Assembly: GCA_000752675.2 (NCBI GenBank)
Contig: LM994625.1
Span: forward strand, 130,734 to 154,733
Reading direction: 5' to 3'
Origin: a bacterium OL-1
GTDB lineage: Bacteria; Actinomycetota; Coriobacteriia; Coriobacteriales; Atopobiaceae
DNA length: 24,000 nucleotides
Below the pieces are notes generated by a model. That model searched no databases. It was not told where the DNA came from and saw nothing but the letters and a program-made list of their open reading frames with translations. Positions 1,682 through 20,612 of this stretch are shown one piece after another (the stretch's first letter is position 1; the number at the start of each line of letters is the position of its first letter). Position numbers and translations under genes: made by a program.

Positions 1682-2269
1682 ATGGCCTTCGGAGTCCTTA
1701 GGTCGAGCGAGAACACGGCTAGACAGCGCAGGTCTGACCTTCGCGATGGCGTACGCATTGGGGACATGTGCGTGCAAGCCGATTTTGGCTACGGTGGTTC
1801 ATTCGAGTCGTCCGTGCATCCCATCATGCTGCCGCTCAACCTCTCCGAAGTCTACGTTATGCTCGTTGCCCTCAAGAAGTACGAGCTTGCCTGCGGAGAG
1901 GGCGACCCTCACGCCACGCTGGCAGCACGTTTGGCAAACATGGCATATGGCGAGCTCAGTGCCTACGCAAAGAAGAAGCTCGCTGACCGTCTCAGCGAGG
2001 CTGGATACGTTTTCCGTCCCGAGGGACCCGCATTCCGCGACGACATGCACGGGTCCTCGGAATGGGTCAAGTTTGAGAAAAGTGGCGTACGCGTAGCAGT
2101 TGAGCTGGATGAGGGCCAGTCGCTCGTGGGTGTGATTGTGGGCGTGGGCAGGTGCCGAGGTGACAAGCCAGGAGACCGTCGCCCGGGACTCACACTGCGC
2201 CTGGATGACGGAAGCGAGATATCTGTACCTTGGTCCCAGGTGGTTAGCATCGATAAGACAGAGGGGTAG
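1682..2269 (+). CDS. Hypothetical protein (195 aa)
   Basis: This is the ORF 1649..2269 frame. ATG at 1682 has GAAGGGAG about 11 nt upstream, whereas the GTG at 1649 sits inside the hairpin stem. I recognise no family. Confidence 0.5.
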   Translation: MAFGVLRSSENTARQRRSDLRDGVRIGDMCVQADFGYGGSFESSVHPIMLPLNLSEVYVMLVALKKYELACGEGDPHATLAARLANMAYGELSAYAKKKLADRLSEAGYVFRPEGPAFRDDMHGSSEWVKFEKSGVRVAVELDEGQSLVGVIVGVGRCRGDKPGDRRPGLTLRLDDGSEISVPWSQVVSIDKTEG

Positions 2270-2303
2270 TAATCGCAGGCGGCGCCCCAGAGCGTTGCAT
2301 CAC

Positions 2304-2336
2304 GCGGGATTGATTTGCCGAGTAACTCAATCCCGC
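2304..2336. terminator. Perfect 10-bp-stem hairpin between convergent genes; also a palindromised copy of the dispersed motif
   Basis: GCGGGATTGA (2304-2313) and TCAATCCCGC (2327-2336) are exact reverse complements with a 13-nt loop. GGGATTGATTTGCCGAGTAACTCAATCCC resembles the GGGATTGAGTTGCCCGGCAACT.. motif. It overlaps the pepV stop codon at 2327-2329. Confidence 0.5.
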
Positions 2337-3730
2337 AGCACCGACAGCCGCTCCAAGGCACTGATGTAGGTGCAGAGCGCCCGCCTTAGCGACCCCTCAG
2401 ATGCCGCCTCGTTTGGTCCGTGTATCCCGCCGACCCAAGACGGGGTACTCTCATCGGGGTCGCCAATCGGCCCAAATCCCACGGCGTACGGAAAGCGTTT
2501 CGCATAGGTTCCGCCGCCAAGAGTTACAGGCTTGGCCGCATCGCCAAACCACTCCGCGTAGCAGTCTAAAAGCACTTGCACCTCGCGCCTCTCGGGATCA
2601 ACGTAGAGCAGCGAGCCCCTATGTACCTCTGCATACTCGACTCCGTACTCCACGCACACCTTCTCGATACCAGCGGAGATGGCATCAGGGCTAGTCGACT
2701 TTGGGTATCGGCAGTCGGTGGTCTGTACGAAATGCCCGTCCCTTGTCTCAATTGTCCCGCTAATGATGGTCAGCGGCGTGAATAGGTCGTCCGTCGCGTT
2801 GATACCAAACGCCGAGCCATCCGTGGACGAGAAGACAATGTTCTCGAACTCGAGCCATCGCCGCTCGCGCACTGAGCCAACGCCATTCTGCAGCAAGTAC
2901 CTCACCAGCACGCCAATTGCGCTCACGGTGCCTTCGGGTTCCGCTGCATGTCCACCCGTGCCCCGTGCCAGAACCTCAGACAGCCCTGCTCCGGCTGCCC
3001 TCACCGTAACGCCTTTCTCTGCCGGAAGCTCATCAGCGCTCACGCGGACAATCGCCCTGGCAGACGCGGCAACCGCATTCCTAACCGTCCCTCCGGCGAT
3101 CTCGACGATCTTCCCCTGTGAATCGCACTTCCAGGCAAGCTCGGCATTGTGAGAGCCCTTCTCACCACAAACCACGGGCCATGCAGAATCCGGAGTGAAC
3201 AGGAAGTCTGGCGCGGCATAGTTGCGAACGTACCACCGCGCGTCATCCATTCCTGTTTCCTCGTTCGCTCCAAGCAGGATGCGGACGGCCTTTCGATCTG
3301 CCGCACAGTCGTGCGTCGAAAGGAAGCGTGCTGCCCACAGCGTCAGAACAGCCGGTCCCTTGTCGTCAAGCACTCCCCTTCCCACAAGATAGCCTTCGCG
3401 CCGTTGCAGAGCGAGGGGATCCGAACTCCATCCAGGACCCGCAGGCACTACATCCAAGTGCGCGATTGTCGCCACCTGGCCATCACGCTCGCCCGGAACA
3501 TCGGCAAAGCCGATAATCCCGCCGCAGTCGTGAGCCTGGAGACCAAGCCTCGACGCCATTCTCAGCGCACAGTTGAGGGCATCCCGCGGTCCCTTGCCCC
3601 ATGGCGCATCGGGCCCTGCAGTGGCCGAATCCCCAATACTCTGAATGCTGACAAGCTCTGCGATGTCGGCAACAATCGCCGACCAGTTGTTGTCAACAAA
3701 ACGACTAATGCACTCTTTGCTTGATGCCAT
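2327..3730 (-). CDS. pepV: M20-family dipeptidase, PepV/Sapep type
   Basis: 467 aa counted from ATG 3730, which has a GGAGGG RBS 8 nt upstream. Motifs HLDVVPAG, DDKGP, GANEETG and GEKG match PepV-type M20 metallopeptidases. Confidence 0.85.
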   Translation of the reverse strand: MASSKECISRFVDNNWSAIVADIAELVSIQSIGDSATAGPDAPWGKGPRDALNCALRMASRLGLQAHDCGGIIGFADVPGERDGQVATIAHLDVVPAGPGWSSDPLALQRREGYLVGRGVLDDKGPAVLTLWAARFLSTHDCAADRKAVRILLGANEETGMDDARWYVRNYAAPDFLFTPDSAWPVVCGEKGSHNAELAWKCDSQGKIVEIAGGTVRNAVAASARAIVRVSADELPAEKGVTVRAAGAGLSEVLARGTGGHAAEPEGTVSAIGVLVRYLLQNGVGSVRERRWLEFENIVFSSTDGSAFGINATDDLFTPLTIISGTIETRDGHFVQTTDCRYPKSTSPDAISAGIEKVCVEYGVEYAEVHRGSLLYVDPERREVQVLLDCYAEWFGDAAKPVTLGGGTYAKRFPYAVGFGPIGDPDESTPSWVGGIHGPNEAASEGSLRRALCTYISALERLSVLRD

Positions 3731-5459
3731 CAGAGTTTCCCTCCAGCACCTCAAGTAGTTCCTGATACCTCATGCCGGAATGGGGAGAGGCAACGGTCCC
3801 AAGCATTGAGTAGAGGTACGAGAATATCGAGCTCTTATCCTCCTGGCGCTTGCTAACCAGCACCACGATAATCAGGCTAATGGGTTCATCCTCGACTTTG
3901 ACAGGTGTGTCAAGCGTGAGCGCAAGTAGCCGTGGCCTGTCTGCCGGCGTTAAGGTAATGCAATGCGGTACCGCAACGCCGTTGAAGCGCAGACACTGGC
4001 CCTGACACTCTCGCGCCATTATGGACGCGACCTCTTCCTTTCGGATAACTCCCCTCTCGAGGAAAAGCTCGAGGCCGCAAGAGAGCATGGAAAGATATCC
4101 GTCACCGGCAACTCCAATCTCCGCGAAGGAGACTTCGGGGAGAATGTCTGGAAGCGACGTACGGTACTGTGAGTCCGTAACTGCGCGCTTTAGAGCTGCC
4201 AAGTCTGCATCGCTCAGAATCCCCCGACAAACAAGATTCCAAGGGAGCCTCTCGAGGCCCTTGTCCGCGAAGGAGTCGTCTCTGATGAGTATCGAGTACG
4301 CACCCGTGCCATACTCCCTTTCTGCCGATTGAACGTCATACACGGAAGTAACCGTCACGTTGTCAAACGTATTCTCGAGCATGGCTCGGTTCACTGACTC
4401 AAGTGACCTTCTCCCGCAGAGCAGCAGAATCGCAAGGGACTGTCCTGTCGAGCAGAGCCCTGTACCTATCACGTAGAGGGCACAGAGCTCGTGCTCCAAG
4501 AACACGTCCTTGCGCAGTGACTCAAGGTACTCGCAGAGGTCCTGGGCAAAGTCGAACTCAATGGGATGATCTATGCGAATGCGGTTAACCTGAGTTCTAA
4601 ACTCATCTGTCATGAGCGTGGTGAACATTGCAGAGCGGGCAATGTGCTCGAACATGACGGTGGGAAGGTCGGGCCGCGATACCCTCATACCGTGTGAGGC
4701 GAGAAGATCGGAAGCTCTGCCAATCAACTCGTAGCGATGCGCAAGGAGCCACGAGTGGAGGTCGCGCTTCCTCGAGATGAGCCTGTCGATTGACGCGCGC
4801 GCAACAGTGAGCGAGAGGGGCTCTCCAAGCTCGAACGGGGCTGTGACGATTGCCGCATAGACCTGCGTGCGTGCTTCCTGGAGCGTCAGCCAGGGCTCCA
4901 TTTCCTGCTGGAAGGACTCTATCTCCTGTGACATAAGCCCGGCGGCAGTCATCCAGGGACCAGCAAGCGTCTGGAGCTCAGTGAGCACTGCACGATCGCG
5001 GGCAGCGAGCGCTGCGACAAAGTCTGCCGGTGAAGACTTCTCGAACACAACCTCTATACCCCGCCCACTCTTCATCTCGATAGAGAGCGTGCGGGAGTAT
5101 CGACGGTTTGCGGAACCAACGCATGCCCTCACGGTGGCATTCGAGAGCCCCGTGCGCTCCTCGACGTCCATCACGGTAGGACGAGGAGAGCTAAGGATTG
5201 CCAGCAGCATAGCCGTCTCATCATCGAAGACCGAGGAGAGAAGTGCATCGAGGGCGTCTTGAGACTGGATTGAGAGCCTGTAGATTGGCTCGGCCTCGAT
5301 AAGTCCGGCCCCGGTCCTCCGCAAGATGTCATTCGCCCGTGCTATGTCACGAAGTACCGTCCTCCTAGAGACGCCTAGGCGAGTGGCCAATTCGGCGCCG
5401 GATGCCGGTCCCTCTCGCAGCGCGAGCACTATAGAGCGTTCTCGACCGCTGAACCTCAT
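3705..5459 (-). CDS. PTS-controlled transcriptional regulator with HTH, PRD, EIIB-like and EIIA-like domains (MtlR/LicR/ManR type)
   Basis: 584 aa counted from ATG 5459. There is an N-terminal winged HTH (GAELATRLGVSRRTVLRDI), a second HTH-like segment and central PRD-like repeats. An EIIB(Gat)-like Cys segment (AILLLCGRRS) and a C-terminal EIIA(Mtl/Fru)-like domain with VAVPHC complete the protein. Confidence 0.8.
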   Translation of the reverse strand: MRFSGRERSIVLALREGPASGAELATRLGVSRRTVLRDIARANDILRRTGAGLIEAEPIYRLSIQSQDALDALLSSVFDDETAMLLAILSSPRPTVMDVEERTGLSNATVRACVGSANRRYSRTLSIEMKSGRGIEVVFEKSSPADFVAALAARDRAVLTELQTLAGPWMTAAGLMSQEIESFQQEMEPWLTLQEARTQVYAAIVTAPFELGEPLSLTVARASIDRLISRKRDLHSWLLAHRYELIGRASDLLASHGMRVSRPDLPTVMFEHIARSAMFTTLMTDEFRTQVNRIRIDHPIEFDFAQDLCEYLESLRKDVFLEHELCALYVIGTGLCSTGQSLAILLLCGRRSLESVNRAMLENTFDNVTVTSVYDVQSAEREYGTGAYSILIRDDSFADKGLERLPWNLVCRGILSDADLAALKRAVTDSQYRTSLPDILPEVSFAEIGVAGDGYLSMLSCGLELFLERGVIRKEEVASIMARECQGQCLRFNGVAVPHCITLTPADRPRLLALTLDTPVKVEDEPISLIIVVLVSKRQEDKSSIFSYLYSMLGTVASPHSGMRYQELLEVLEGNSDGIKQRVH

Positions 5460-6616
5460 AGGCTCCGCACCCCCGCCAAAAGGCCTTTGAGACCCTCCTC
5501 TAGTTTTGACCGCGGACATGCCACGCACATTCTCAGGTACTTGTCATCGCCGTAGGCAGCACCGTTCATGATGCCAACATGCCCCACGTGCACCAACGCG
5601 TCCTGCAAACGCGCAGCGCTCACGCCAAGTGCCGAGGCGTCCATCCAAGCAAGATACGTCCCCTGAGGAACCGAGAACCTAATCTCCGGAATGTTCGTCG
5701 AGAGGAACTCCCCAATGGCATCCATGTTCGCACGAATGTAGGAGCGCAGGTCGTCGACGTACTGGTCGCACTTGCGATAACCTGCCGATTGAGCGTACAT
5801 TCCCAGGATGCTCGTGCTAGATAGCGCGTTGCGCTGCTTGAGCTCAAAGAGAAATTCCTCACGCAGGCCCTTCTCGGGAAAGAACGCGTACGACCCAATA
5901 AGCCCAGCGGTGTTGAACGTCTTCGATGACGAGCAGGCAAGCGCGGTGTTCTTCTCGGTAACCTCTGTGATAGGCGTATAGGGCACATCGCCAATGATGA
6001 TGTCGCGATGGATATCGTCTGAGATAAGGAAGGTGTTAGTCTCAGCGCATATCGAGGCAATTCTCTGCAGCTCGGCCTTCGTGAACACCTTGCCAGTTGG
6101 ATTGTGGGGGTTGGTCAGGAGAAACACCTTTGCAAGGGGATCAGTGCATGCCCGTTCGAGACCATCCCAGTCAATCTGGTAGTCATCCATGGCAGACGAG
6201 AGGCTAACAGGAACTAGTACCCTCCCGTTTCCGCGGATAGCGCCAAAGAACGCATCATACATTGGGGAGAAGGTTACAACCGCATCCCCAGGGTTTGACT
6301 TGAGCCTGATCAGCGTTGCGACCGTAAAGATAACGCTAGGACTGTAGACAATCCATTCGGGATTGACGCGTGCCCCTCCCCTGCGGTCAAACCACTCCAC
6401 GATGGGCTGCTTGAACCCATCGTGATTCCAACGCGTATAGCCAAGTATGGGGTGGTCGAGACGACTTTTAATGGCGGTGAGAATCTCATCGGGAACCGAA
6501 AAGTCAGCATCGGAAATGGAGAAGGGAATCACGTCTGAAGACCCAAAACGGTCTGCAGCGTAATCCCACTGTGTGCAATAGGTTCCATGCCTGTCAATGA
6601 CCTCATTGAAGTCCAT
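5456..6616 (-). CDS. MalY/PatB-family PLP-dependent C-S lyase (class I/II aminotransferase fold)
   Basis: 386 aa. The N-terminus DRHGTYCTQWDY and the motifs LLTNPHNPTGKVF and SSSKTFN (PLP lysine) are typical of MalY/PatB cystathionine beta-lyase-like enzymes. Confidence 0.85.
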   Translation of the reverse strand: MDFNEVIDRHGTYCTQWDYAADRFGSSDVIPFSISDADFSVPDEILTAIKSRLDHPILGYTRWNHDGFKQPIVEWFDRRGGARVNPEWIVYSPSVIFTVATLIRLKSNPGDAVVTFSPMYDAFFGAIRGNGRVLVPVSLSSAMDDYQIDWDGLERACTDPLAKVFLLTNPHNPTGKVFTKAELQRIASICAETNTFLISDDIHRDIIIGDVPYTPITEVTEKNTALACSSSKTFNTAGLIGSYAFFPEKGLREEFLFELKQRNALSSTSILGMYAQSAGYRKCDQYVDDLRSYIRANMDAIGEFLSTNIPEIRFSVPQGTYLAWMDASALGVSAARLQDALVHVGHVGIMNGAAYGDDKYLRMCVACPRSKLEEGLKGLLAGVRSL

Positions 6617-6648
6617 ATTGCGCTCGACCCCCTTGATTTCATTGGCGA

Positions 6649-6680
6649 GCTGGCACCCGCCTCACAGGACAGGTGCCAGC
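6649..6680 (-). other. Intercistronic perfect 9-bp-stem hairpin between PTS EIIBC and the C-S lyase gene
   Basis: GCTGGCACC (6649-6657) and GGTGCCAGC (6672-6680) are exact reverse complements with a 14-nt loop. It lies in the 98-nt gap between the two genes. Confidence 0.5.
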
Positions 6681-6714
6681 GTACCAGCAATCAGTTACAT
6701 CACGAGATGACGTC

Positions 6715-8154
6715 CTATGCGGCCTGCTGCGCCTTCTCGGCCTGGCGCTTAAGCCAGATTGACTTGAAGATAATGATCAGAGCCACGTTAAGCACAAGCC
6801 CCACTGCGACTGCGATGTAGTAGGCCCACGCAGGAGAAATCAGTCCGAGAAGAGGATCGAAGATGCCAATCCCGGGGGCAATGCGCTGCACACCCAGTGC
6901 CATGGAGATTGCGCCAGCAACGCCACCGGCAATGACGTTCGCAGAAATCATTGGCAGGGGAGCGGCAAGTGCATACGGGATGGCGGGCTCGGTTGCGACC
7001 GTAGCGCCAACGATAAGTGCAGGAATCGCAGCGTCACGCTCGCCCTCGGTGAACAGGGAAGGACGAATCCAAGTTGCGATGGCGGCTGCCATGGGCGGCA
7101 GGATGGTCACAACGCCAACGATGCCATACCAGTCGTAGACGCCAGAAGCAACCAGCGAGAAGGAGAAGAACCACGCAGCCTTATTGACAGGGCCACCCAT
7201 GTCGAAGGCAAGCATGGCGCCAACCAGGAAGGCACCCGCAAGCTTTGCACCCTCAGGAATACTCGAAAGCATGACGACCAGGCCGTTCATAAGGGCAGCG
7301 GCGATGGGTCCAATGAAGTAGTAGGTCAGAAGCGCAAAGACGAGCAGACTGACAAACGGGATAATAAGGAAACCCATCAGGCCGTGCATGTTCTTAGGAA
7401 GCTGAATCTTCCTCAGGGCGTTAGCAAAGTAGCCAACGAGGATGCCGATGATCACCGCGCCAATGAAGCCGGCACCCGTCTGGGTACCCAGCAGGTCAGC
7501 GCTGTTCGCAAGGTAGGAGCAGATGAACGCGGGGGCGAGTGCGGGCTTGCCGCCAATGGACTGTGCAATCCACGCGCCCATGACGGGAACCATGAAGGAG
7601 AAGCCCAGCGAACCAATGGTGTTGAGCACCCACGCTATGGATGCAACCTGGCCATCGGCCGGCTCGATGTTGGGGGCACCAAACTGAATCATGATCGAGC
7701 CGATGGCCATGAGAAGGCCGCCGCCAATCACGAACGGCAGAGCAGCGGAAACACCAGCCATCAGGTGGTTCATGAACCCGGTCACAGCGCCGGTGCCATT
7801 ACGACCACCGAGGTCAACCGAGGTGGCTCGATACAGCTTTGCCTCTCCCTCGAGATTGCCCATCACGGAGTCGATGTTCTTCAGGGCCTCGGACACCGGG
7901 AGCTCGATGACCTTTTTGCCATCGAAGCGCACACGGTCATCCTCGTCCATACCCTTGCCAAGGGCGAGGATGACATAGTCGGCATCCTTAATCTGGTCCT
8001 TGGTCAGCTGGTTCTCGACACCATTGGCACCCTGGGTCTCGACGTGAACTTCGTAGCCGAGGGCCTCACCTTTGGTTTTAATCGCCTCCGCCACCATGTA
8101 GGTGTGCGCGATGCCAGCTGGACAGTTGGTCACCGCAACGATCGATTTGGACAT
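6715..8154 (-). CDS. PTS fructose-family transporter subunit EIIBC
   Basis: 479 aa counted from ATG 8154, preceded by an AAAGGAG RBS. The N-terminal EIIB(Fru) motif is NCPAGIAHTYMVAEA, followed by a polytopic EIIC domain. Confidence 0.9.
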   Translation of the reverse strand: MSKSIVAVTNCPAGIAHTYMVAEAIKTKGEALGYEVHVETQGANGVENQLTKDQIKDADYVILALGKGMDEDDRVRFDGKKVIELPVSEALKNIDSVMGNLEGEAKLYRATSVDLGGRNGTGAVTGFMNHLMAGVSAALPFVIGGGLLMAIGSIMIQFGAPNIEPADGQVASIAWVLNTIGSLGFSFMVPVMGAWIAQSIGGKPALAPAFICSYLANSADLLGTQTGAGFIGAVIIGILVGYFANALRKIQLPKNMHGLMGFLIIPFVSLLVFALLTYYFIGPIAAALMNGLVVMLSSIPEGAKLAGAFLVGAMLAFDMGGPVNKAAWFFSFSLVASGVYDWYGIVGVVTILPPMAAAIATWIRPSLFTEGERDAAIPALIVGATVATEPAIPYALAAPLPMISANVIAGGVAGAISMALGVQRIAPGIGIFDPLLGLISPAWAYYIAVAVGLVLNVALIIIFKSIWLKRQAEKAQQAA

Positions 8155-8221
8155 TGCCCGCTCCTTTCTACTGGCCGACAACGGTCGGCACGCCATTCAG
8201 ATAAGCCCCGTCCCCTCGTCC

Positions 8222-8674
8222 TCAGGAGGCGTTGCCCGAAAGCACTCCATCGATTGCCTCGAATACCTCATCATCAGTGCCCTTGTTGAGTATCTCTACG
8301 AACTCGGGGTGCACGAGCTTGCGGCTAAGCGATGAGAGCAGCCGGAGGTGCTCAGAGTTCGCCCCGCTGGGAACCAGGATGGAGATAACGGTCTGGACCG
8401 GCTTGCCATCAATCGAGTTCCACTCGACAGGTTGGGACAGCCGCGCAAAGAGCACCGTGGGCTCAGAGACATCATCAGTCTTGGAATGAGGAATGGCGAT
8501 GCCTCCTCCAAAGCCAGTCGATGCCTCCTCCTCTCGCTCCTTGTAGTCACGCACTATTGCCTGCGCATCGTGGGCAAGCCCCAAGCTCACCGCACGTTCC
8601 GCGAGCCTCTCGAAAACCTCTTCCTGGGTTTTCACATCAATTGTTCCGAGAATGTTTCCGCGAGTGAAGAGCAT
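8222..8674 (-). CDS. PTS EIIA component (fructose/mannitol, PTS_EIIA_2 type)
   Basis: 150 aa counted from ATG 8674, preceded by a GGAGGGG RBS. It carries the phosphorylatable-His motif GIAIPHSK. Confidence 0.85.
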   Translation of the reverse strand: MLFTRGNILGTIDVKTQEEVFERLAERAVSLGLAHDAQAIVRDYKEREEEASTGFGGGIAIPHSKTDDVSEPTVLFARLSQPVEWNSIDGKPVQTVISILVPSGANSEHLRLLSSLSRKLVHPEFVEILNKGTDDEVFEAIDGVLSGNAS

Positions 8675-8747
8675 GTCCCCTCCCCTTCCACATGGCCTCA
8701 CCCAGCCGACGGCCAGTAAATTGAGGTGCTCCGCTTGGACTTGCCTG

Positions 8748-8805
8748 AGTATCCCATCATCGAATCCACACCTTAAGAGTGGTTTTGTCGCAGCCCCTGT
8801 GACAA
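8748..8805 (-). promoter_or_regulatory. Candidate promoter and upstream 21-bp imperfect palindrome for the block A PTS operon
   Basis: On the minus strand, TTAAGG (8771-8776), a 17-nt spacer and GATACT (8748-8753) form a weak sigma-70-like pair. The palindrome TTGTCGCAG-CCC-CTGTGACAA at 8785-8805 (8 of 9 arm positions pair) lies 8 nt upstream of the -35 element. Confidence 0.3.
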
Positions 8806-8857
8806 AGGCTGGCCGTTATTTAGGACTGGGATGCCCCAGGCGGGGGGCGAGATAACT

Positions 8858-8900
8858 TTGCCCGGCAATGGGATTCCATCGCCGGGCAACGGAGTTGCAT
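8858..8900. repeat. Dispersed motif copy: TTGCCCGGCAA half-site plus GGGATTCCATCGCCGGGCAACGGAGTTGCAT
   Basis: It shares GGGATT, the GCC(C/G)GGCAA core and GAGTTGCAT with the copies at 449-479, 9322-9352 and 17875-17905. Confidence 0.6.
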
Positions 8901-8991
8901 AAGCGGACTAAGCGACTGATGATTGCGACGTTATCTCTCCTCCGTGGCCACTGATACAATTCCTCTACCGCCTCCGAGGAGGGCAGCGCCC

Positions 8992-9312
8992 ATGGACGAG
9001 AAATGCAAAGATTCCAGCGACCGCACGACCATCGACCTCTCTCAGGAGGGAAGACCCTCCCTCGCCGTGAGCGACGTCCGAATCAAAAGCATGATCTACA
9101 CCGTTCGCGGCGAGCAGGTCATGCTCGACAGCGACCTCGCGAAGCTGTACGGCGTGGAGACCAGAACGCTCAACCAAGCCGTCACGAGGAACCCCGACCG
9201 CTTCCCGGAGCGCTTCTGCTTCAGACTCACAAAAAAATGGGATGGTGATCCGCGGGCATGTCCGTCACGATATGGACGCACCCAAAGACCGAACTCACTG
9301 GACGCGACGTAG
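8992..9312 (+). pseudogene. Truncated or frameshifted ORF6N-domain (KilA-N-like DNA-binding) gene
   Basis: IYTVRGEQVMLDSDLAKLYGVETRTLNQAVTRNPDRFPERFCFRLTK matches the ORF6N domain. Similarity stops right after an A7 run at about 9230-9236, and the remaining reading frame looks unrelated. Confidence 0.6.
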
Positions 9313-9798: not shown

Positions 9799-11439
9799 TT
9801 AGCTCAACACAGCACCGGTCTTCGCAGAAGCCACCTGCTTCGAGTAACGTTCGAGCAGATGTCCTCCGTTCTCGTGAATAACCGGCTCCCACGATGCGCG
9901 ACGTGCACTCAGCTCCTCGTCTGAGACGTTCAGCTCGATGAGGTTCTTGTTGAGGTCAACATGGATTTCGTCGCCATCCCTCACGAGGGCGATTGTCCCT
10001 CCCTCAAACGCCTCGGGGCAGAGATATCCCACCGAAAGGCCGCCAGAAGCGCCTGAGAAGCGACCATCCGTAATAACTGCCGAATTCGGAATGCCCTTCA
10101 TTATCTCGGTGACGCGGTGCAGTTCCTTCATTCCGGGTCCCCCCTTGGGGCCCTCGTAACGCACGACTACACCGGTGCCAGGCTTGATGGCATGCGCATT
10201 GTACGCAGCAAACGCTTCCTCCTCAGATTCGAAGACCTGGGCCTTGCCTGTCCAAACATGCTGCTCGGCCGGCACGGCGCTGGTTTTCACGAGTGCACCT
10301 TCGGGAGCAAGGTTCCCGTAAAGCACCTGTATTCCATTGCAAACTGAATCTGAATCATCCTGCGTCCGGATGACCGAGCGGTCAACAGGAACGTCCCTGT
10401 CGAGGTTCTCACCCAGCGTCCGTCCAGTAACGGTCATCGCCGAGGTGTCGAGGTCCCCCTCTATGGTCTTGAGCACAGCGGGAACTCCGCCCGCCTTGTA
10501 GAGGTTGATGCAGCTGATGTCACCATTGGGGACGACGTTGCACACGACGGGAGCGTGGCTAGTGATGTCGGCAACCTTGTCCCAGGTGACCTCCAGTCCA
10601 AGCTCATGCGCGAGGGCCGGAAGATGCACCATCGCGTTGAGGGACCCGCCGATAGAGGCAAGGAGCTTTACCGCATTGTCAAGCGCCCCCTGGGTCATGA
10701 TGTCGGAAGGGCATATCCCCTTGCGGACAAGCTCGACGACACGCGCACCGGTCTGCCGTGCGCTGAATCTCCGTTGACTTGTTGAGCTCGGCCAGAGGGC
10801 ACCGTACGGAAGCATCATACCAAGCGCTTCCGAGAGGCATCCCATGGTGTTCGCGGTGCCCAAGAACGGGCAGATGCCAGGCCCGGTGTAGTACTTGAGC
10901 GTTCCCTCTATCACGTCGCGCTCCGAAGCCTCACCACGCAGAAACGCCGCACGAAGAACCTTGGATTGCGAGGGCTTTATCTCGTCATAGCAGGGTCCTG
11001 CGGTAACGATGGCGGAGGGGAGGTTAATACGCGCTGCAGCGTTGAGCATACCCGGGATGATCTTGTCGCATGATCCCATGTAGACGACTCCGTCGAAGAC
11101 CCCCTCTCCCACAATCATGGCCTCGCAGGAGTCGGTGATGAGGTCGCGGTGCGGCAGGCAGTAGCGCATACCGGGATGCCCTTGGGCAACACCATCGCAC
11201 ATACCAATAGTGTTGAACTCTATTGGCTCCCCACCGGCCTCGAGCACGCCCTTCTTAACCTCGGCAGCAAGCTGTCGGAGTGGCTCGTGGCCGGGGCAGA
11301 CCTCATTCCAGCTGTTTGCGATCGCAATGAGCGGCTTATCGGGGTCCTCCAGCGAGTCAATCGCAATTCCTGCCGACGCAAGGTGCGCCTTTGATATGGC
11401 CCTCTGGAATGGTTCGAGCTGATCGATCTTACGTTGCAT
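9799..11439 (-). CDS. IlvD/Edd-family dehydratase (sugar-acid or phospho-sugar-acid dehydratase candidate)
   Basis: 546 aa with a GAAAGGGA RBS. Family motifs are NSWNEVCPGH, GMCDGVAQGH, GSCDKIIPGM and GICPFLGTANTM, including three Fe-S cluster Cys positions. Confidence 0.85.
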   Translation of the reverse strand: MQRKIDQLEPFQRAISKAHLASAGIAIDSLEDPDKPLIAIANSWNEVCPGHEPLRQLAAEVKKGVLEAGGEPIEFNTIGMCDGVAQGHPGMRYCLPHRDLITDSCEAMIVGEGVFDGVVYMGSCDKIIPGMLNAAARINLPSAIVTAGPCYDEIKPSQSKVLRAAFLRGEASERDVIEGTLKYYTGPGICPFLGTANTMGCLSEALGMMLPYGALWPSSTSQRRFSARQTGARVVELVRKGICPSDIMTQGALDNAVKLLASIGGSLNAMVHLPALAHELGLEVTWDKVADITSHAPVVCNVVPNGDISCINLYKAGGVPAVLKTIEGDLDTSAMTVTGRTLGENLDRDVPVDRSVIRTQDDSDSVCNGIQVLYGNLAPEGALVKTSAVPAEQHVWTGKAQVFESEEEAFAAYNAHAIKPGTGVVVRYEGPKGGPGMKELHRVTEIMKGIPNSAVITDGRFSGASGGLSVGYLCPEAFEGGTIALVRDGDEIHVDLNKNLIELNVSDEELSARRASWEPVIHENGGHLLERYSKQVASAKTGAVLS

Positions 11440-11494
11440 TATGGTTTCCCTTTCCTGTAAGACAATGAGAGCAAGGAAGTGCTTTTCGGAGGGA

Positions 11495-12400
11495 TTACGA
11501 CCAATCTAGGACGTGCATGGGATTCTCCACGAGCATCCGCCAGTAGTCCTGTTCGTCAATCTCCTTGAGGAGTTGCTCTTTGAGGCCTGTGAGGATGTAG
11601 TCAAGGCCGGGCGTACCACCATATGACTTGAAGTAATTCTTCTTGCCCATGTCTCCTGCTAGGCAAACTTGGCCGCCGAAGCCAGAGCAAACAAAGTCCT
11701 TCAGTAGCGACACCCGGACGGAGTCATGCCCCACCAAATCCCTACCAACATGATCGAAGGAGAGGAACGCTCCTCTTTTCATCAAGGTTTTCATGTAGGC
11801 GGGGTCAAGAGTTAGGTCCGTGTGCGAGAGGCACACGTGCGCCAAGTTCATACCCTCAGCCTCAAGCAGGTCGAGTTGCTCCATGCCCATCGTGCCCTTG
11901 TCGCAATGCGTAATAATTGGGAGATGATGCCTGGACGCAACTTGGGCGGCGATTCTAATCGCCCGCCTCTCCCGCTCCGTGACCTTTCCCAAGGACGTGC
12001 CAATCTTGACAGCCGCCGGCTTGACCTTCGAAAAGCCTATTCCTTCTTCGATCTCGCGTGTCAGCTCGCGAGCAATCTCTGCATCAGACAGACTGTCAAA
12101 CCAACGCGGAAGCCAAAGGTCCTTGTGAAATCCCGTGACGCAGAGCACGTTGATGCCAGCTTGCTGAGATATCAAGCGGAGAGCTTCGGGATTTCGACCA
12201 TATGCAAGTGGCGTCATGTCCACGATGGTGCAGCCACCCGCCGCCTTGAACAGCTCGGCCTCCTCGATGCTTTTCGAGGGCACGTCGAGAGTGTAATCGT
12301 AGTAGCATTCGAGCTCGTCGGGAGAGACGTAGAGGTGCTCATGAATGTAGGTTGTCCCCAGGTCTTGGGGGTCAATCTCTCCGAGGACGGTGTTGATCAT
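11495..12400 (-). CDS. Phosphotriesterase-family (COG1735, PHP-like) amidohydrolase; probable phospho-sugar lactonase
   Basis: 301 aa. Binuclear-metal ligand positions all appear present: HEH (TYIHEHL), Lys in AAVKIG, His in ITHCD, His in LSHTD and Asp in LAGDMG. The start lies 6 nt after the dgoD-like stop. Confidence 0.8.
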   Translation of the reverse strand: MINTVLGEIDPQDLGTTYIHEHLYVSPDELECYYDYTLDVPSKSIEEAELFKAAGGCTIVDMTPLAYGRNPEALRLISQQAGINVLCVTGFHKDLWLPRWFDSLSDAEIARELTREIEEGIGFSKVKPAAVKIGTSLGKVTERERRAIRIAAQVASRHHLPIITHCDKGTMGMEQLDLLEAEGMNLAHVCLSHTDLTLDPAYMKTLMKRGAFLSFDHVGRDLVGHDSVRVSLLKDFVCSGFGGQVCLAGDMGKKNYFKSYGGTPGLDYILTGLKEQLLKEIDEQDYWRMLVENPMHVLDWS

Positions 12401-12406
12401 GGCTAC

Positions 12407-13552
12407 CTACCATTCCGCTATGGTTCCGTCATAGTTCTTCCAGCTGGGATTTCTCCAGACAAGGCCCTCGGCAGAAACCGCCTTTACTATCTCCTCGTCG
12501 ATTTCCAGTCCCAGCCCAGGCCCGCTGGGAACATCAACGTATCCGTCCGAATACTGAAAGACCTCTTTGTTCTTAACAAAGTCGAGAAGATCGAAGCCCT
12601 GATTGTAATGGATGCCTAAGCTCTGCTCCTGAATGAACACGTTGGGTGAGCACGCATCGACCTGAAGGGTTGCAGCAAGAGCGATGGGCCCATAGGGAGC
12701 GTGAGGTGCAGCAGCCATATCGAACGCCTCGGCCATCGCGATAATCTTACGCATCTCGAGGATGCCCCCGCAGAGCGACACGTCTGGCTGGATAATATCA
12801 ACTGCCCCCTGCACAAACAGGCGCTTGAACTCCCAGCGCGAATACAGGCGCTCTCCCGTGGCGATAGGGATGGGTACCTCCCGGGAGATGTCATCAAACG
12901 ATTCCCAGTTCTCCGGAAGAACAGGCTCCTCAATGAACATGGGGTGATACGGGGCAAGGGCATACGCGAGAACCTTTGCCATTGGCTTGTGGACGCGGCC
13001 ATGGAAGTCGATACCGATTTCGATTTCGTTCCCGCAAGCACTCCGGATTGACTCTACCCTGTCGACAACCTGCTGAACCTTGTCGTAGGTATCAACGTAA
13101 TGAAGCTCTTCCGTTGCGTTCATCTTCACGGCGCGGAAACCCTTCGCCAGCCTGTCCGCGGCGCCATTCGCGACATCAGACGGCCGGTCCCCGCCAATCC
13201 AGGAATATACCCGCACGCGGTCGCGCGCCTTCCCTCCCAGAAGCTGCCAAACTGGGACGCCGAGAGCCTTACCCTTGATGTCCCATAGCGCCATCTCGAG
13301 TCCAGAAACAATGGTCCCGTTAATCGGGCCACCACGAAAGAAGGATCTGTGCAGCTCTTGCCAAATCCTCTCAATCTCGAAGGGATCGCGACCGATGATT
13401 CGCTGGGAAAGCTCCCTTGCTCCCTCGACGACTGTTCGCGTTTTGGTCCCTGAGACCATTTCTCCCCACCCGCTGACACCCTCGTCTGTCTCGACCTTGC
13501 AGAAAATCCATCTTGGTTTTACCTCGTAAATCTGAACTCCGGTGATCTTCAT
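12407..13552 (-). CDS. dgoD: D-galactonate dehydratase-like enolase-superfamily enzyme
   Basis: Similarity to E. coli DgoD (recalled from memory) runs end to end: MKIT..., ETDEGV.GWGE, ALWDIKGK, VWQLLGG, DFHGRV, MFIEEP, ATGER, IIQPD, APH.PYGPIALAA, QEQSLGIHYN, LLDFVKNKE, WRNP and the C-terminal AEW. I prefer ATG 13552 (GAGGA 5 nt upstream) over ATG 13558. Confidence 0.9.
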   Translation of the reverse strand: MKITGVQIYEVKPRWIFCKVETDEGVSGWGEMVSGTKTRTVVEGARELSQRIIGRDPFEIERIWQELHRSFFRGGPINGTIVSGLEMALWDIKGKALGVPVWQLLGGKARDRVRVYSWIGGDRPSDVANGAADRLAKGFRAVKMNATEELHYVDTYDKVQQVVDRVESIRSACGNEIEIGIDFHGRVHKPMAKVLAYALAPYHPMFIEEPVLPENWESFDDISREVPIPIATGERLYSRWEFKRLFVQGAVDIIQPDVSLCGGILEMRKIIAMAEAFDMAAAPHAPYGPIALAATLQVDACSPNVFIQEQSLGIHYNQGFDLLDFVKNKEVFQYSDGYVDVPSGPGLGLEIDEEIVKAVSAEGLVWRNPSWKNYDGTIAEW

Positions 13553-13633
13553 TGCCATCCTCGCTATTCGTTGGAAAGAGAGGGGCAGAGCGTGATGCTC
13601 CGCCCCTCATGCGGGTACTGCGTGTATAGGGAA

Positions 13634-14902
13634 CTAGGCAAGGAAGCCTGCGAGCCACTGCAGGCAGAAGCCGATAAGGTGCTCGCCAGCGTCCTCGGTG
13701 GAGATGAACTGCATGCCATCGGGGAGTACGAAGCCGCCGGCAATCGCGAGCTGGGTATGAACCGGCGCAAGGGCGGTAGCAATCCACAGCACGATGCAGG
13801 TAATAATGGTCGTGGAGAGAATACCACGGAAGATGTTGCCCTTACCAAACGCAACAGGCCACGCAGCGAGCCACATCGCCTGGTAAGCAATATCGGCGAT
13901 GGGGAGAAGCTTGTTGCCGGGCAAGACTGCAGCAAGCAGGAGCGTGATAGGAACCATGATGATTCCAACCGTGATGGCGGACTCATTGGCGACGGTCAGG
14001 GCAGCGTCGATACCCATTACGAAGTCGGTACCGGGGAAGCGCTTCTGGAGAATCTCCTTCACGGCGTTTGCGAAAGGAAGGAGACCTTCCATGAGAATCT
14101 GCATCATCTTGGGGGTGAGGACCATCGTTGCGGAGGTGCTCATGGCAACGATAAGGACCTTGTCAATCGAGTCGCCTGCCAGAAGGCCGATTGCCGCGCC
14201 GATGATGAAGCCCATGAACATGGGTTCACCGACGAAGCCGAACTTCTCCTGAACTCCCTTGGGGTTGATGTCGATCTTGTTAATGCCGGGGATGACATCC
14301 CAAAGCTTGTTCAGCGCGTATGCAACCGGAGCCCAGATTGCGGAGTTAGAGGTCGGGAAGTTGACACCCTCGAGCTCGAAGTAATCTTCGACGACAGGAG
14401 TGGTCCAGTCCGCAATCTTGATTGTGATGATGAAGTCAACAGCAGAGGCGATGATGGAAATCCAGGGATTGCCATTGGTGGCATACCAAACCAGAGCGCC
14501 TGTGAAAATGAAGTGGTTATAAGACCAGAAGTCGACCATGACCGTCTTGGTCGTCTTGGTAATCAACATGAGGGCGTTCACGCCGAGAACGACGAAGACA
14601 ACAATTGCGGCAAGGGGGAACGCCCAGGTCGCAGCGGCCCTAGCGGGCCATCCCACATCCATGATGGAGGTCTGGATTCCCCAGTTCGCAACCATGTTGG
14701 TTACGGAATCGGCGACCTGGGCAACAAACCAGTTGATCACCATGTTGACGCCCGCGAAGCCAATACCCACCAGCAAGGCAGACTTTAGTAAAACATTGAT
14801 TTTCACACGGAAGATGAGGCCGAGAATCAAGATGATGATTGGCATCATGACCATAGGACCCATCGAAGCGATGGTTTGGAGACCAGTTACCACAAAGTCC
14901 AT
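13634..14902 (-). CDS. PTS galactitol-family EIIC permease (GatC/SgcC-like)
   Basis: 422 aa, polytopic, with an AGGAGG RBS. The overall sequence has EIIC-GAT family character (my recognition, not a search). Confidence 0.8.
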   Translation of the reverse strand: MDFVVTGLQTIASMGPMVMMPIIILILGLIFRVKINVLLKSALLVGIGFAGVNMVINWFVAQVADSVTNMVANWGIQTSIMDVGWPARAAATWAFPLAAIVVFVVLGVNALMLITKTTKTVMVDFWSYNHFIFTGALVWYATNGNPWISIIASAVDFIITIKIADWTTPVVEDYFELEGVNFPTSNSAIWAPVAYALNKLWDVIPGINKIDINPKGVQEKFGFVGEPMFMGFIIGAAIGLLAGDSIDKVLIVAMSTSATMVLTPKMMQILMEGLLPFANAVKEILQKRFPGTDFVMGIDAALTVANESAITVGIIMVPITLLLAAVLPGNKLLPIADIAYQAMWLAAWPVAFGKGNIFRGILSTTIITCIVLWIATALAPVHTQLAIAGGFVLPDGMQFISTEDAGEHLIGFCLQWLAGFLA

Positions 14903-14932
14903 TGCGTCTACCTCCTAGGTTGCAGTTTTCGC

Positions 14933-15232
14933 TTACGCCTTAAGCTGAGCCTCTATTTCGGCCTTTGCCTTATCCTCGCCAACTCCCGTGACGAAGGCAG
15001 TCCCCTTAATTACGGGCGCATCTCCCGTCTCCACACCCTTGAGTTTGCCCGTAGGAACAATGAAATCCACGTGATTCGAAGCGAGGTTGCCCTGAACCTC
15101 GGAGAACTTGCACTGAATAATGCGAGGCTCAGGCGCACCACAAGCAGCGGCAATTTCCTTCACCTTGGCAACCGCCATAGTCGACGTAATCATCGATGAG
15201 GCGCAGCACACGATAACCGTCTTTTTCTCCAT
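14933..15232 (-). CDS. PTS EIIB component (galactitol/lactose-type small IIB)
   Basis: 99 aa with an N-terminal Cys motif KKTVIVCCASSMITS and a GGAAGGG RBS. Confidence 0.8.
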   Translation of the reverse strand: MEKKTVIVCCASSMITSTMAVAKVKEIAAACGAPEPRIIQCKFSEVQGNLASNHVDFIVPTGKLKGVETGDAPVIKGTAFVTGVGEDKAKAEIEAQLKA

Positions 15233-15245
15233 GCTTTTACCCTTC

Positions 15246-15692
15246 CTAATTGAATAGCTCTATTACCTGTTGCGCGGAATCGGCGTCAGCGATTTGTGCA
15301 ACGAGTTCCTGGTTTTGCAAGACACCCATAATTTTCTGAAGGGCTTCAAGCTGGTGCTCGGGCTTATCGAACACGGAAAGAACAACCACGCTTACCGGAA
15401 TCGACTCATCAGAGTCCTCCATGTTGTGCCACTCGACTGGCTTCTTTAGCGTTGCGACCAGCAGCTGAGTGGTATTTGCGTACTGGTAGTCGGTGTGGGG
15501 AATTGCGACGTTGATGCTTCCGAGGGCGAGCCCCGTCGGATATTCCCTCTCCCGGCTCACCAGATGTTCCTCGTAGGATTGCTTAACCTTGCCCTCGCCA
15601 AAGAGGTGGGTTGATACCAGGTGAAGAACTTCCTGGCAGCTCTCTGCGTCAATGTTGAGGAGAATGTCCTCTGGAAAAAGATTGAGTACCAT
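15246..15692 (-). CDS. PTS EIIA component (PTS_EIIA_2, GatA/mannitol-fructose type)
   Basis: 148 aa with the His motif NVAIPHTD and a GGGAGG RBS. Confidence 0.8.
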   Translation of the reverse strand: MVLNLFPEDILLNIDAESCQEVLHLVSTHLFGEGKVKQSYEEHLVSREREYPTGLALGSINVAIPHTDYQYANTTQLLVATLKKPVEWHNMEDSDESIPVSVVVLSVFDKPEHQLEALQKIMGVLQNQELVAQIADADSAQQVIELFN

Positions 15693-15714
15693 CGGAACTT
15701 AGCCTCCCTACCCG

Positions 15715-16344
15715 CTACCAACGGACCTTCTGCTCGAACGCCTCAATGTCGGCCTTAAGCGCACCCTCATCCATCTCGATGATGTGCTTGGGATCGAAGA
15801 TGCCGGACCCGATGCCGGCATATGAGGCACCTTCGTCGAAGAACTCCTGGCAGTTGTCACCATTCACGCCGCCAACAACCATGATTGGCATGGGATTAAG
15901 AGGGGCCTGGATGTCCTTGATGTACTTTGGGCCAAGCGTGCCTGCGGGGAAGACCTTCACGATGTCCGCGCCCATCTCGAACATGTTCCAGACCTCAGAA
16001 GGCGAGAAGGCCGAGGGAACGGTTAGAAGGCCGTTTGCCTTGCAGATGCTAAAGATCTCCTCGGTAAAGCAGATTGGGGAGAGCGCGAAGCGAGCCCCCG
16101 CCTCGACGGCCGCGTAAGCACGCGCAGTAGAGATGACGGTTCCCGCGCCGACGAGAACGTCATCGCCAAACTCATTTGCGACTTTCTCGATGGTCTGGGC
16201 CGCACCGGGCGTGTTCATCGCAACCTCAACGGCGCCCAGCTTGGTTCCGACCATGCTCTTCACAACGCATCGAACTTGTTCGTAGTTGTATCCGCGAAGA
16301 ATGACCGTCACCTTGGGAAACTTTGTAAGACTGAGGTCTATCAC
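15715..16344 (-). CDS. eda: 2-dehydro-3-deoxy-phosphogluconate/phosphogalactonate (KDPG/KDPGal) aldolase family
   Basis: 209 aa with a GTG start at 16344 and AGGAGGG 5 nt upstream. It has the Eda-type motifs VEVAMNT (Glu), GAGTV and the Schiff-base Lys in VKVFPA. Confidence 0.85.
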   Translation of the reverse strand: MIDLSLTKFPKVTVILRGYNYEQVRCVVKSMVGTKLGAVEVAMNTPGAAQTIEKVANEFGDDVLVGAGTVISTARAYAAVEAGARFALSPICFTEEIFSICKANGLLTVPSAFSPSEVWNMFEMGADIVKVFPAGTLGPKYIKDIQAPLNPMPIMVVGGVNGDNCQEFFDEGASYAGIGSGIFDPKHIIEMDEGALKADIEAFEQKVRW

Positions 16345-16700
16345 GTCTTCCCTCCTGCTTTCGATATTTGTGATGCAAGCTAGGAATGTATTTATCTTGC
16401 TTGTTGCTCATATTTGAACATAGTTTCATCACATTAACAAGCAGTGTTTTAGAAAAGGCATTATTTGTATTTAATTAGGGGTATTTGTGGCATTTTAACT
16501 GCGTGTTTGAAATTTAATATGTATATTTTTCTTTATGAACGATTATTACTACATAGTTTCTACATATAATTTTGCTCACCAGACACACGTATGTCTGCGA
16601 GTAATTGATTAATTTTACTATGAAGGTGAATAACCTAATTCTTCGGAGTGGAGGCCCTCCGGCGCTTGTGCATTGCTCCTCAAGAGCATGGCACCATGCC
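16345..16700 (-). promoter_or_regulatory. AT-rich leader and promoter region of the block B operon, with phased direct repeats and a palindrome
   Basis: GC is about 30% in my count of 16441-16500, against over 50% in the flanking genes. CTACATA-GTTT-CTACATA sits at 16549-16566, ACATAGTTTC recurs at 16418-16427 and 16551-16560, and the palindrome CAGACA-cacgta-TGTCTG is at 16580-16597. Several -35/-10-like pairs are possible and I cannot resolve them by eye. Confidence 0.55.
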
Positions 16701-18511: not shown

Positions 18512-18521
18512 GTCACGCCCG

Positions 18522-18548
18522 CAATACTGTTTCCAATACTGTTACTGT
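18522..18548 (-). promoter_or_regulatory. Tandem direct repeats upstream of the antitoxin gene (candidate autoregulatory operator)
   Basis: CAATACTGTT occurs at 18522-18531 and 18534-18543 with a 12-bp period, plus a third ACTGT at 18544-18548. The first repeat begins about 10 nt upstream of the ATG at 18511. Confidence 0.45.
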
Positions 18549-18575
18549 CGCCGAGAATCAACGGCCTTCAAAGCA

Positions 18576-18607
18576 AAAACCCTGACCTGTTTTCGCAGGT
18601 CAGGGTT
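18576..18607 (-). terminator. Rho-independent terminator downstream of the tRNA
   Basis: AAACCCTGACCTG (18576-18588) and CAGGTCAGGGTTT (18595-18607) form a perfect 13-bp stem with a 6-nt loop. On the minus strand it is followed by TTTTTGCTTT. Confidence 0.75.
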
Positions 18608-18615
18608 TGAATTTA

Positions 18616-18692
<77 letters not shown>

Positions 18693-18719
18693 ATGGGTTG
18701 CGCCTCAGCGCAAGAAGTA

Positions 18720-18748
18720 ACTATATGCTCAAGCCCACTCTCGGTCAA
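18720..18748 (-). promoter_or_regulatory. Sigma-70-type promoter for the tRNA
   Basis: On the minus strand, TTGACC (18743-18748), a 17-nt spacer and TATAGT (18720-18725) sit about 30 nt upstream of the tRNA 5' end. Confidence 0.6.
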
Positions 18749-18816
18749 CACCGCAGCGCGTCTCCATAGAGAAGACAAAAGTGCGCCGAGACACGCAAGG
18801 AGACGCCGCAGTCGCC

Positions 18817-20462: not shown

Positions 20463-20612
20463 GGCGATAACCCCCGGAAAACGCAGTTGTGCGGCTACGT
20501 ACCATCATAGGGGCACGAAGCCGCAGGGCGAATGTCATACGTCAGGTTCAGGCAAGCTCCGCGAAAGCTGCCGCCATGGGGGCGGCGCCGCGCGCAGGCG
20601 AGAGACCCCCAG

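Follow-up and report, generated by a model that had tools for sequence, protein, structure and literature searches.

A frv-type phosphotransferase cassette with a MalY-clade lyase and a PepV-type dipeptidase in an Atopobiaceae genome: a possible catabolic module for sugars bearing an amino acid

Why should the genes of a sugar phosphotransferase system (PTS) be grouped with those of a carbon–sulfur (C-S) lyase and a dipeptidase? The question is raised by a stretch of 24,000 nucleotides (the window; C9:130734-154733) from the 2.46-Mb genome of an Olsenella-like member of the Atopobiaceae. Five minus-strand genes, running from 8674 down to 2327, encode in this order a PTS EIIA, an EIIBC, a lyase, a regulator and an M20 dipeptidase. 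A first-pass annotation of the region 2327-8805 had given this gene order and strand, and all five genes are present as it placed them. It had also noticed that no sugar-phosphate-metabolising enzyme accompanies the transporter: the block contains no kinase, isomerase or aldolase. A glycosidase is likewise absent from the window cassette. What that annotation overlooked is the kinship of these genes with the cryptic frvABXR operon of E. coli. The cassette is a variant of this known but uncharacterised kind of operon. For about thirty years no physiological explanation has been found for the frv and fry PTS operons of E. coli, whose M42 and M24 'peptidases' are an oddity, or for the malX-malY pair.

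The reading developed here, to which we give somewhat less than an even chance, is that of a frv-type catabolic module for a PTS substrate with an amino-acid part, either a glycosyl-amino acid or a very short glycopeptide. The proposed mechanism has four stages. (i) FrvA and FrvB, fed by the genome's own EI and HPr, would import the compound and phosphorylate its sugar. (ii) The PepV-type dipeptidase would trim a flanking residue, leaving a sugar-bearing amino acid with free amino and carboxyl groups. (iii) The MalY-clade lyase would then carry out a beta-elimination that yields pyruvate, ammonia and a sugar-phosphate, or a thio-sugar-phosphate if the linkage is through sulfur. No dedicated kinase, isomerase or aldolase would be needed for these products to reach central metabolism. 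(iv) FrvR, a putative PRD-type activator with an EIIA-like domain, would bind a TGTCAC-N7-GTGACA box upstream of frvA, its activity being subject to phosphorylation by the PTS. The simplest chemistry would be a sugar O- or S-linked to the beta-carbon of serine or cysteine. Substrate class, order of steps and the role of the lyase as deglycosylating enzyme are inferred; the first-pass annotation had called its own substrate pure inference, and that caution still holds.

The five genes and their relatives

The transporter genes show kinship with frv. The FrvA-like EIIA (8222..8674, 150 residues) matches PF00359, has its phosphorylatable His63 in the motif GIAIPH and lies above the cut-off of the FrvA model (NF007389, 158.8 against 151 bits), with 34% identity to E. 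coli FrvA. The FrvB-like EIIBC (6715..8154, 479 residues) is a fructose-family protein. It falls just under the FrvB equivalog cut-off (NF008493, 745.8 against 806 bits) and is 58% identical to FrvB of E. coli K-12 over its full length; its third-best NCBIfam match is MngA. Cys11 of the EIIB part and the surrounding motif, TNCPAGIAHTYM, are invariant in 13 members of the clade. EI and HPr are encoded in the same genome.

The lyase gene (5456..6616) encodes 386 residues with a predicted pyridoxal phosphate (PLP)-dependent beta C-S lyase activity. Its score against the PatB family model TIGR04350, 334.6 bits, is marginally under the cut-off of 340, and among proteins of solved structure it best matches E. 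coli MalY (1d2f, E = 1e-101). The PLP-binding lysine, Lys232, lies in the sequence SSSKTFN; together with Tyr120, Asp200 and His203 it is invariant in 27 PTS-linked lyases. In a maximum-likelihood tree these 27 form one clade (support 95/99), made up of E. coli MalY, 21 frv-linked enzymes and five whose genes lie with those of a Lac-type PTS and of M42 and M24 peptidases; 16 other lyase paralogues are placed outside it. The first-pass annotation had drawn an analogy with malX-malY, and the phylogeny agrees. Thirteen diagnostic residues are invariant in the clade. They include Arg62-Trp63 of a GYTRW motif; in the majority of the paralogues outside the clade position 62 is occupied by Asp or Glu. 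The GYTRW loop probably contributes to the active site of the neighbouring subunit. Of the 16 outside paralogues, 14 are from Atopobiaceae and at most 36% identical to the window lyase; one alone of these 14 has a PTS EIIC beside it (1.5-kb flanks, three EIIC queries).

The regulator gene (3705..5459) encodes a FrvR-like activator of 584 residues with HTH_11 and PTS_EIIA_2 domains. Its best match by a wide margin is the FrvR model NF007366, at 241.9 bits, which is below the cut-off of 426. Identity to E. coli FrvR is 21-28% in two segments, in the N- and C-terminal parts, and the two proteins share a layout that runs from helix-turn-helix (HTH) to EIIA, as well as a position after the enzyme gene. 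The first-pass label of an MtlR/LicR-type regulator is not established by the sequence, which has no Pfam PRD match. A search of PDB sequences also gave no match, and a fold search was therefore made with an AlphaFold 2 model, built on 17 orthologues (pLDDT 87.4). The predicted structure combines two winged HTH domains with a long, PRD-like stretch of helices, an EIIB-like domain of alpha/beta type and a domain that resembles EIIA(Mtl/Ntr). It matches PRD-containing MgaSpn, 3sqn (Mga family) and AtxA with a probability of 1.0 at a global template-modelling score of about 0.3, and its C-terminus matches EIIA-Ntr/Mtl. At the level of fold, then, the label is reasonable. His272, Arg275 and His499 are invariant in the 17 orthologues, the last of them within the EIIA-like domain.

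The last gene (2327..3730) encodes a putative PepV/Sapep-type M20A dipeptidase of 467 residues. It lies above the cut-off of the Sapep subfamily (TIGR01887, 263.2 against 207.95 bits), matches PepV (1lfw) with E = 3e-43 and aligns with both 1lfw and Sapep (3khx) at the metal-binding and catalytic motifs HxD, DDKGP, NEET, PD and the C-terminal His. The PepV equivalogs are not reached (278.9 against 435 bits for NF005591 and 193.5 against 632 bits for TIGR01886). By these scores the protein is a member of the PepV/Sapep family and not the housekeeping PepV. A second PepV paralogue, 46% identical, is encoded elsewhere in the genome, so that the cassette copy is an extra, dedicated one. With their catalytic and phosphorylation residues intact, the proteins of the cassette look capable of function.

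EIIA and EIIBC are separated by 67 nt, and EIIBC and the lyase by 98 nt, within which a hairpin lies. Overlapping starts and stops had been noted for the last three genes. An ATGA (5459-5456) is indeed common to the lyase stop and the regulator start; the regulator and dipeptidase genes are joined differently, through an overlap of 26 nt (3730-3705). EIIA, EIIBC and the dipeptidase each have a good ribosome-binding site before the start codon, GGAGGGG in the case of EIIA and GGAGGG in that of the dipeptidase.

Recurrence and mobility of the grouping

An even sample of 201 Atopobiaceae genomes was searched for the lyase at an identity of at least 60%. Twelve genomes from six genera have it, among them three of the 14 genomes of the window's own genus, one of the three having only a Lac-type paralogue at 48%. 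The 11 loci that were fetched have the genes for EIIBC, lyase, FrvR and M20 in the same order, the exception being a contig that ends just upstream of the lyase. Identity to the window proteins falls from EIIBC (76-80%) through the lyase (60-67%), EIIA (48-60%) and the M20 protein (45-57%) to FrvR (35-44%). An EIIA gene is present in eight of these 11 loci. Separate EIIA genes are absent from the EIIBC-lyase-FrvR-M20 cassettes of two genomes (L048 in G044, L052 in G117) and two metagenome contigs (L075, L088). There the sole nearby EIIA-like sequence belongs to FrvR, as its C-terminal domain, and one may ask which protein phosphorylates EIIB.

The composition of the cassette changes from lineage to lineage. 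L. plantarum and L. casei have EIIA-EIIBC-lyase-FrvR and no dipeptidase. Listeria newyorkensis has EIIA-EIIBC-M42-lyase-FrvR, and Granulicatella has EIIA-EIIBC-FrvR-lyase followed by an M20/M28-type peptidase. A Mycoplasmatales metagenome-assembled genome has RpiR-EIIABC-M42-lyase without FrvR. E. coli K-12 has frvA-frvB-frvX(M42)-frvR, and the enterics keep the M42 peptidase only. A metagenome scan with an alignment of the FrvB clade gave 80 loci, and each of those with enough downstream DNA has a lyase, an M42 peptidase or both. The lyase occurs at EIIBC identities of at least 64%, and FrvX, in enteric loci, at 58-60%. Across these systems the partnership of transporter, lyase and peptidase recurs in four bacterial phyla, and on account of this recurrence the grouping is far beyond chance. 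The first-pass annotation had suggested that conservation of the neighbourhood be analysed. The PTS-lyase pair proves to be kept in Actinomycetota, in Bacillota (Lactobacillaceae, Listeria, Granulicatella) and in the one Mycoplasmatales genome. Its linking of the PTS to both a lyase and a peptidase gains considerable comparative support from this pair and from the M20 or M42 metallopeptidase of most lineages; the conjugate that it proposed as substrate is still inferred. It had, however, treated PepV as part of the combination, whereas the conserved core lacks this enzyme. The PepV-type dipeptidase is a lineage-specific addition.

The distribution is patchy. A phylum-wide sample of 400 other Actinomycetota gave no lyase match at E <= 1e-110. 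In the tree the Atopobiaceae lyases split into two groups, one of which is sister to the Lactobacillaceae group. Patchiness and split together fit a history of horizontal exchange with Lactobacillales. At the L. plantarum locus (L011:780-5614 and 15682-16770) the cassette is flanked on one side by N-acetylmuramic acid (MurNAc)-type utilisation genes, namely MupG, a MurQ-like SIS protein, an EIIBC and RpiR, and on the other by a beta-glucoside PTS with a GH1 enzyme. This setting is probably just a sugar island, the alternative being a link with peptidoglycan fragments.

A second module of related composition was found in the Atopobiaceae. Its genes run in the order M42 peptidase, Lac-family EIIA, EIIB and EIIC, M24 peptidase, MalY-clade lyase and RDD protein, and a PRD regulator accompanies them. 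Its lyases are 46-48% identical to the window lyase (tblastn) and do not lie beside FrvAB. Five such loci were seen (L055-L059, in genomes G168, G200, G176, G033 and G152; for example L058:4648-10761), of which L055 also has an HTH-Mga-PRD-EIIA regulator. The module matches the MalY cluster of Latilactobacillus sakei LT-13. It also resembles the E. coli fry operon, in which ypdE is the M42 gene and ypdF the M24 gene. Fusions of EIIBC with M42 (P0213, P0216 and P0231; 828-836 residues) might have served as Rosetta-stone evidence. They were given no weight. The one inspected (L065:7001-9487) shows exact synteny with the rha-frv-yiiG region of E. coli, in which frvB and frvX overlap; a frameshift in that strain or an assembly artefact may thus have joined the two genes, without a natural fusion of domains.

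Gene order thus varies, and the Mycoplasmatales lineage lacks FrvR, so the lyase tracks the PTS and the peptidases rather than the regulator. The peptidase partner is itself swapped among related families of clan MH (M20, M42), and in the Lactobacillaceae version the lyase is the sole enzyme. From the varied orders, the swapped peptidases and this solitary lyase, it is most likely that the lyase acts on the PTS product itself.

The cassette also moves between strains as a unit. In blastn comparisons with gut metagenome contigs the limits of the moving block are 2306..8899 on the minus strand. In three such contigs (L069, L071 and L099) this block, or one that extends further left, directly adjoins 18519-23509, so that position 8899 is joined to 18519 beside a tRNA-Met gene (18616-18692). 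Missing from all three is the segment 8900-18518, which holds an ORF6N remnant and a sugar-acid PTS cassette (9799-16344) with dehydratases, a lactonase-like PTE, a Gat-family PTS and a KDPG-type aldolase. This segment was inserted independently, in the space that separates the frv-like block from the tRNA. Since they are absent where the block adjoins the tRNA-Met region, the neighbouring aldolase and dehydratases stand outside the frv-like system. Further along the window are three genes for Cof-type HAD hydrolases (18817-19614, 19614-20462 and 22515-23351), which flank one for an M20 peptidase with a dimerisation domain (21167-22444). Another fructose-family EIIBC is encoded just past the window end (C9:155584-156993).

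Expression, function and rival explanations

A candidate FrvR operator, TGTCACAGGGGCTGCGACA, lies at 8786..8804 (minus strand), 130 nt upstream of the EIIA start. It reads TGTCAC-N7-GCGACA in the window. The inverted repeat TGTCAC-N7-GTGACA is conserved across phyla. Each locus has a single copy, 96-130 nt ahead of EIIA; besides the window it is present in four further Atopobiaceae loci, in L. plantarum and in L. casei, with variants in Listeria, Granulicatella and one enteric frv locus. The palindrome is a good candidate for the FrvR box, in the position expected of an activator. About 10 nt past the repeat the sequence CTTAA is conserved in most of the aligned lineages and is read as a -35 element. 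The candidate promoter (8748..8776, minus strand) would have the -35 hexamer TTAAGG (8776-8771), a 17-nt spacer and the -10 hexamer GATACT (8753-8748). These hexamers are our own assignment from cross-species conservation only; a consensus scan for sigma-70 promoters and terminators over 2100-9100 gave no match on the minus strand. A possible tmRNA ahead of the cassette in one relative found no support from ARAGORN.

The gap between EIIBC and the lyase contains a GC-rich hairpin (6649..6680, minus strand), found by folding, with a 13-bp stem, a 6-nt loop and no U-tract. It begins 34 nt past the EIIBC stop and ends 33 nt ahead of the lyase ATG. The gap as a whole folds at -44.1 kcal/mol (z = -2.6). 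All 12 lyase-type cassettes folded have a strong hairpin past the EIIBC stop, and several of these hairpins have T-runs and resemble intrinsic terminators. Membership of the window hairpin in a dispersed repeat family was considered and rejected, since no second copy exists in the window when up to three mismatches are allowed. Neither a shared 9-mer nor a second FrvR box was found in the gap before the lyase across the compared cassettes, and a second regulated promoter therefore cannot be shown there. In the window the 33 nt between hairpin and ATG leave no room for a promoter after the hairpin, so the likeliest course is that transcription from the frvA promoter runs on through the hairpin to give the messenger for lyase, FrvR and dipeptidase, and that the hairpin sets the ratio between the two parts. 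Atopobium fossor and a relative (L046 at about 8785-8820, and L049, in oriented cassette coordinates) have a longer gap, in which the terminator-like hairpin is followed by an AT-rich perfect palindrome of 16 bp, GTCTAGTCATTATTAA-N4-TTAATAATGACTAGAC. It looks like the operator of a second promoter, which some species may thus possess; no counterpart was found in the window.

Several single steps of the proposed pathway have precedents. PepV and then PatB act in sequence on Cys-Gly-3M3SH (PMC11742315), and LmbF beta-eliminates S-glycosyl-L-cysteine (PMC11794154). The alf-2 glyco-amino-acid cluster of L. casei unites an M20 PepV with a PLP enzyme (PMC6960285), in Salmonella the dga PTS feeds a PLP ammonia-lyase (PMC9529869), and malY of C. 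difficile lies in a PTS operon with which it is co-regulated (PMC6143707).

Other points weigh against the proposal. A terminator-like hairpin stands between the PTS genes and the lyase in every lyase-type cassette folded, and the two halves may therefore be expressed differently. The best-known role of E. coli MalY is regulatory. We know of no glyco-amino acid that is taken up as a PTS substrate. The searchable literature yielded no substrate for any frv-type PTS and no functional study of such a system, and no study that assigns a substrate was found in it for FrvX or for PTS-linked MalY clusters; for PLP-dependent beta-elimination of an O-glycoside no precedent was found in it, only the S-glycosyl case. 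MalY/PatB enzymes are promiscuous, acting as cystathionase and cysteine desulfhydrase and, in L. sakei, as a racemase too (PMC5845896), and a pepV mutant of the alf-2 cluster was without phenotype (PMC6960285).

A more specific version of the proposal is deglycosylation without a glycosidase: FrvAB would import and phosphorylate a serine or cysteine with an O- or S-linked glycosyl group, alone or within a dipeptide, and the lyase would free the sugar-6-phosphate by beta-elimination, with pyruvate and ammonia as further products. This version is speculative, and we hold it to be rather doubtful. Mannoproteins, mucins and other glycoproteins are candidate sources of such compounds. If true, it would account for the physiology of the MalY clade and of the cryptic frv, fry and malXY loci of E. 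coli; a lyase that serves as the deglycosylating step would represent a new route by which gut, oral and food bacteria harvest glycoprotein fragments. No paper that describes a PTS-lyase-peptidase module as such was found in the searchable literature. The old puzzle becomes a testable hypothesis, with amino-acid-bearing sugars as a class imported by the PTS. L. plantarum and L. casei are tractable hosts, the candidate operator lends itself to reporter assays, and the clade-specific residues of the active site offer themselves as targets for mutation.

The lyase might instead be mainly regulatory, binding and modulating FrvR as MalY does MalT, while an ordinary sugar enters through the PTS and the dipeptidase is a passenger. 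E. coli MalY is the closest solved relative of the lyase and belongs to the same clade. Lyase and frvR appear translationally coupled in most cassettes, through an ATGA or a gap of at most 19 nt, and the terminator-like hairpin sets the two apart from the transporter genes. This explanation is nevertheless unlikely. The Mycoplasmatales cassette keeps lyase and M42 with RpiR in place of FrvR, the Granulicatella order is FrvR-lyase, and in the Lac-type clusters lyase and regulator lie at opposite ends. All catalytic residues of the lyase are invariant, and the recurrence of peptidases would be left unexplained.

Decidedly unlikely, too, is a substrate of the aminoacyl-amino-sugar type, or a cysteine-containing sugar thiol (bacillithiol-like Cys-GlcN-malate and its S-conjugates), whose amide the M20 or M42 enzyme would cleave, leaving the lyase to dispose of cysteine or its S-conjugate. 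The enteric cassettes, which have the M42 aminopeptidase alone, suggest that hydrolysis by itself can free the sugar. A fructose-family PTS can take glycosides with small acid aglycones, and the MngA match of the EIIBC fits such a role. The Lactobacillaceae cassettes, however, have the lyase and no peptidase, and hydrolysis therefore cannot be the universal release step. Glucosamine-malate (GlcN-malate) as product would need a glycosidase, and none is present. The hosts of the cassette are not known to produce bacillithiol. Enzyme chemistry speaks for this substrate class in two respects: MalY-type enzymes desulfhydrate cysteine (PMC6143707), and the PLP enzyme of alf-2 works on the released amino acid (PMC6960285).

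Still less probable is an Amadori or Heyns compound, that is, a fructosyl-amino acid or fructosyl-peptide imported by a fructose-like PTS and trimmed by the peptidases. The fructose-family EIIBC and the recurring peptidases would suit such a substrate. PLP enzymes, though, require a free alpha-amino group, which an N-alpha-fructosyl amino acid does not have, and N-blocked peptides are not cut by aminopeptidases. No cassette examined contains a deglycase of the SIS type (FrlB/FraB type) or a relative of one.

A chance or merely positional neighbourhood is very improbable. The PTS would then bring in fructose or mannose as such, and the lyase and dipeptidase would belong to the general metabolism of sulfur amino acids and peptides. 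Both enzyme families have housekeeping members, and the hairpin could end the PTS transcript. Against this stand a pairing kept across several phyla in varied gene orders with non-orthologous peptidases, the separate PepV paralogue in the genome, the rarity of EIIC genes within 1.5 kb of other Atopobiaceae lyase paralogues and the movement of block 2306-8899 as a unit.

Comparison with known systems

The dga system of Salmonella, for D-glucosaminate, has an aldolase and is under sigma-54-dependent control. The first-pass annotation had cited it as a precedent, and in one respect it is one: as in the module proposed here, a PTS hands a phosphorylated amino compound to a PLP-dependent eliminating enzyme, DgaE (PMC9529869). 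The PTS is of the mannose family, and the PLP enzyme is unrelated to the window lyase, so the likeness is one of analogy only.

Two further systems share the enzymes and differ in uptake. In the thioalcohol pathway of Staphylococcus hominis (PMC11742315, PMC7385124) an M20A PepV is followed, as in the window, by a PatB-type C-S lyase, the substrate being a Cys-Gly S-conjugate. There a peptide transporter takes up the conjugate, sugars play no part, and the window M20 protein scores only 144 bits against that equivalog's cut-off of 1025. The alf-2 cluster of L. casei, which serves fucosyl-GlcNAc-Asn, is a proven glyco-amino-acid cluster and, like the window cassette, combines an M20 PepV with a PLP enzyme, in this case of the aspartate-aminotransferase family (PMC6960285). 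It differs from the window cassette in that its substrate enters through a permease of the major facilitator superfamily and not through a PTS, its sugar–amino-acid bond is cut by a glycosylasparaginase, and its PepV is dispensable.

The MalY cluster of L. sakei LT-13 (PMC5845896) and its Atopobiaceae counterparts are closer. They share with the window a PTS, a lyase of the MalY clade and the absence of a glycosidase, and have aminopeptidases. The PTS neighbourhood of MalY is noted in the L. sakei paper and left unexplained there (PMC5845896). These clusters differ from the window in the lactose/cellobiose-family EIIA, EIIB and EIIC, in the M42 and M24 peptidases and RDD membrane protein, and in a regulator with a recognisable PRD domain. 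In E. coli malX-malY, as in the window, a PTS permease gene is followed by that of a MalY lyase from the same supported clade. MalX, however, is a glucose-family EIICB, whereas the window has a fructose-family EIIBC; a LacI-type regulator, MalI, stands in place of a FrvR-like protein; no peptidase is present; and MalY acts in the inhibition of MalT, of which the window cassette has no counterpart.

The closest parallel is E. coli frvABXR. Both have the gene order EIIA, EIIBC, one enzyme and FrvR-type regulator, and one enteric frv locus has upstream of it a palindrome related to that of the window. The M42 protein FrvX occupies the slot in which the window has the MalY-type lyase, and the window has no M42 gene. 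The window adds an M20 dipeptidase after the regulator, and it has a hairpin-bearing gap after EIIBC where the frvB and frvX genes overlap. Glycosidases and sugar-phosphate enzymes are absent from all of these PTS-lyase clusters. Seen together, these clusters show one recurring module, in which three PTS families are each joined to a single clade of MalY-type lyases and usually to metallopeptidases.

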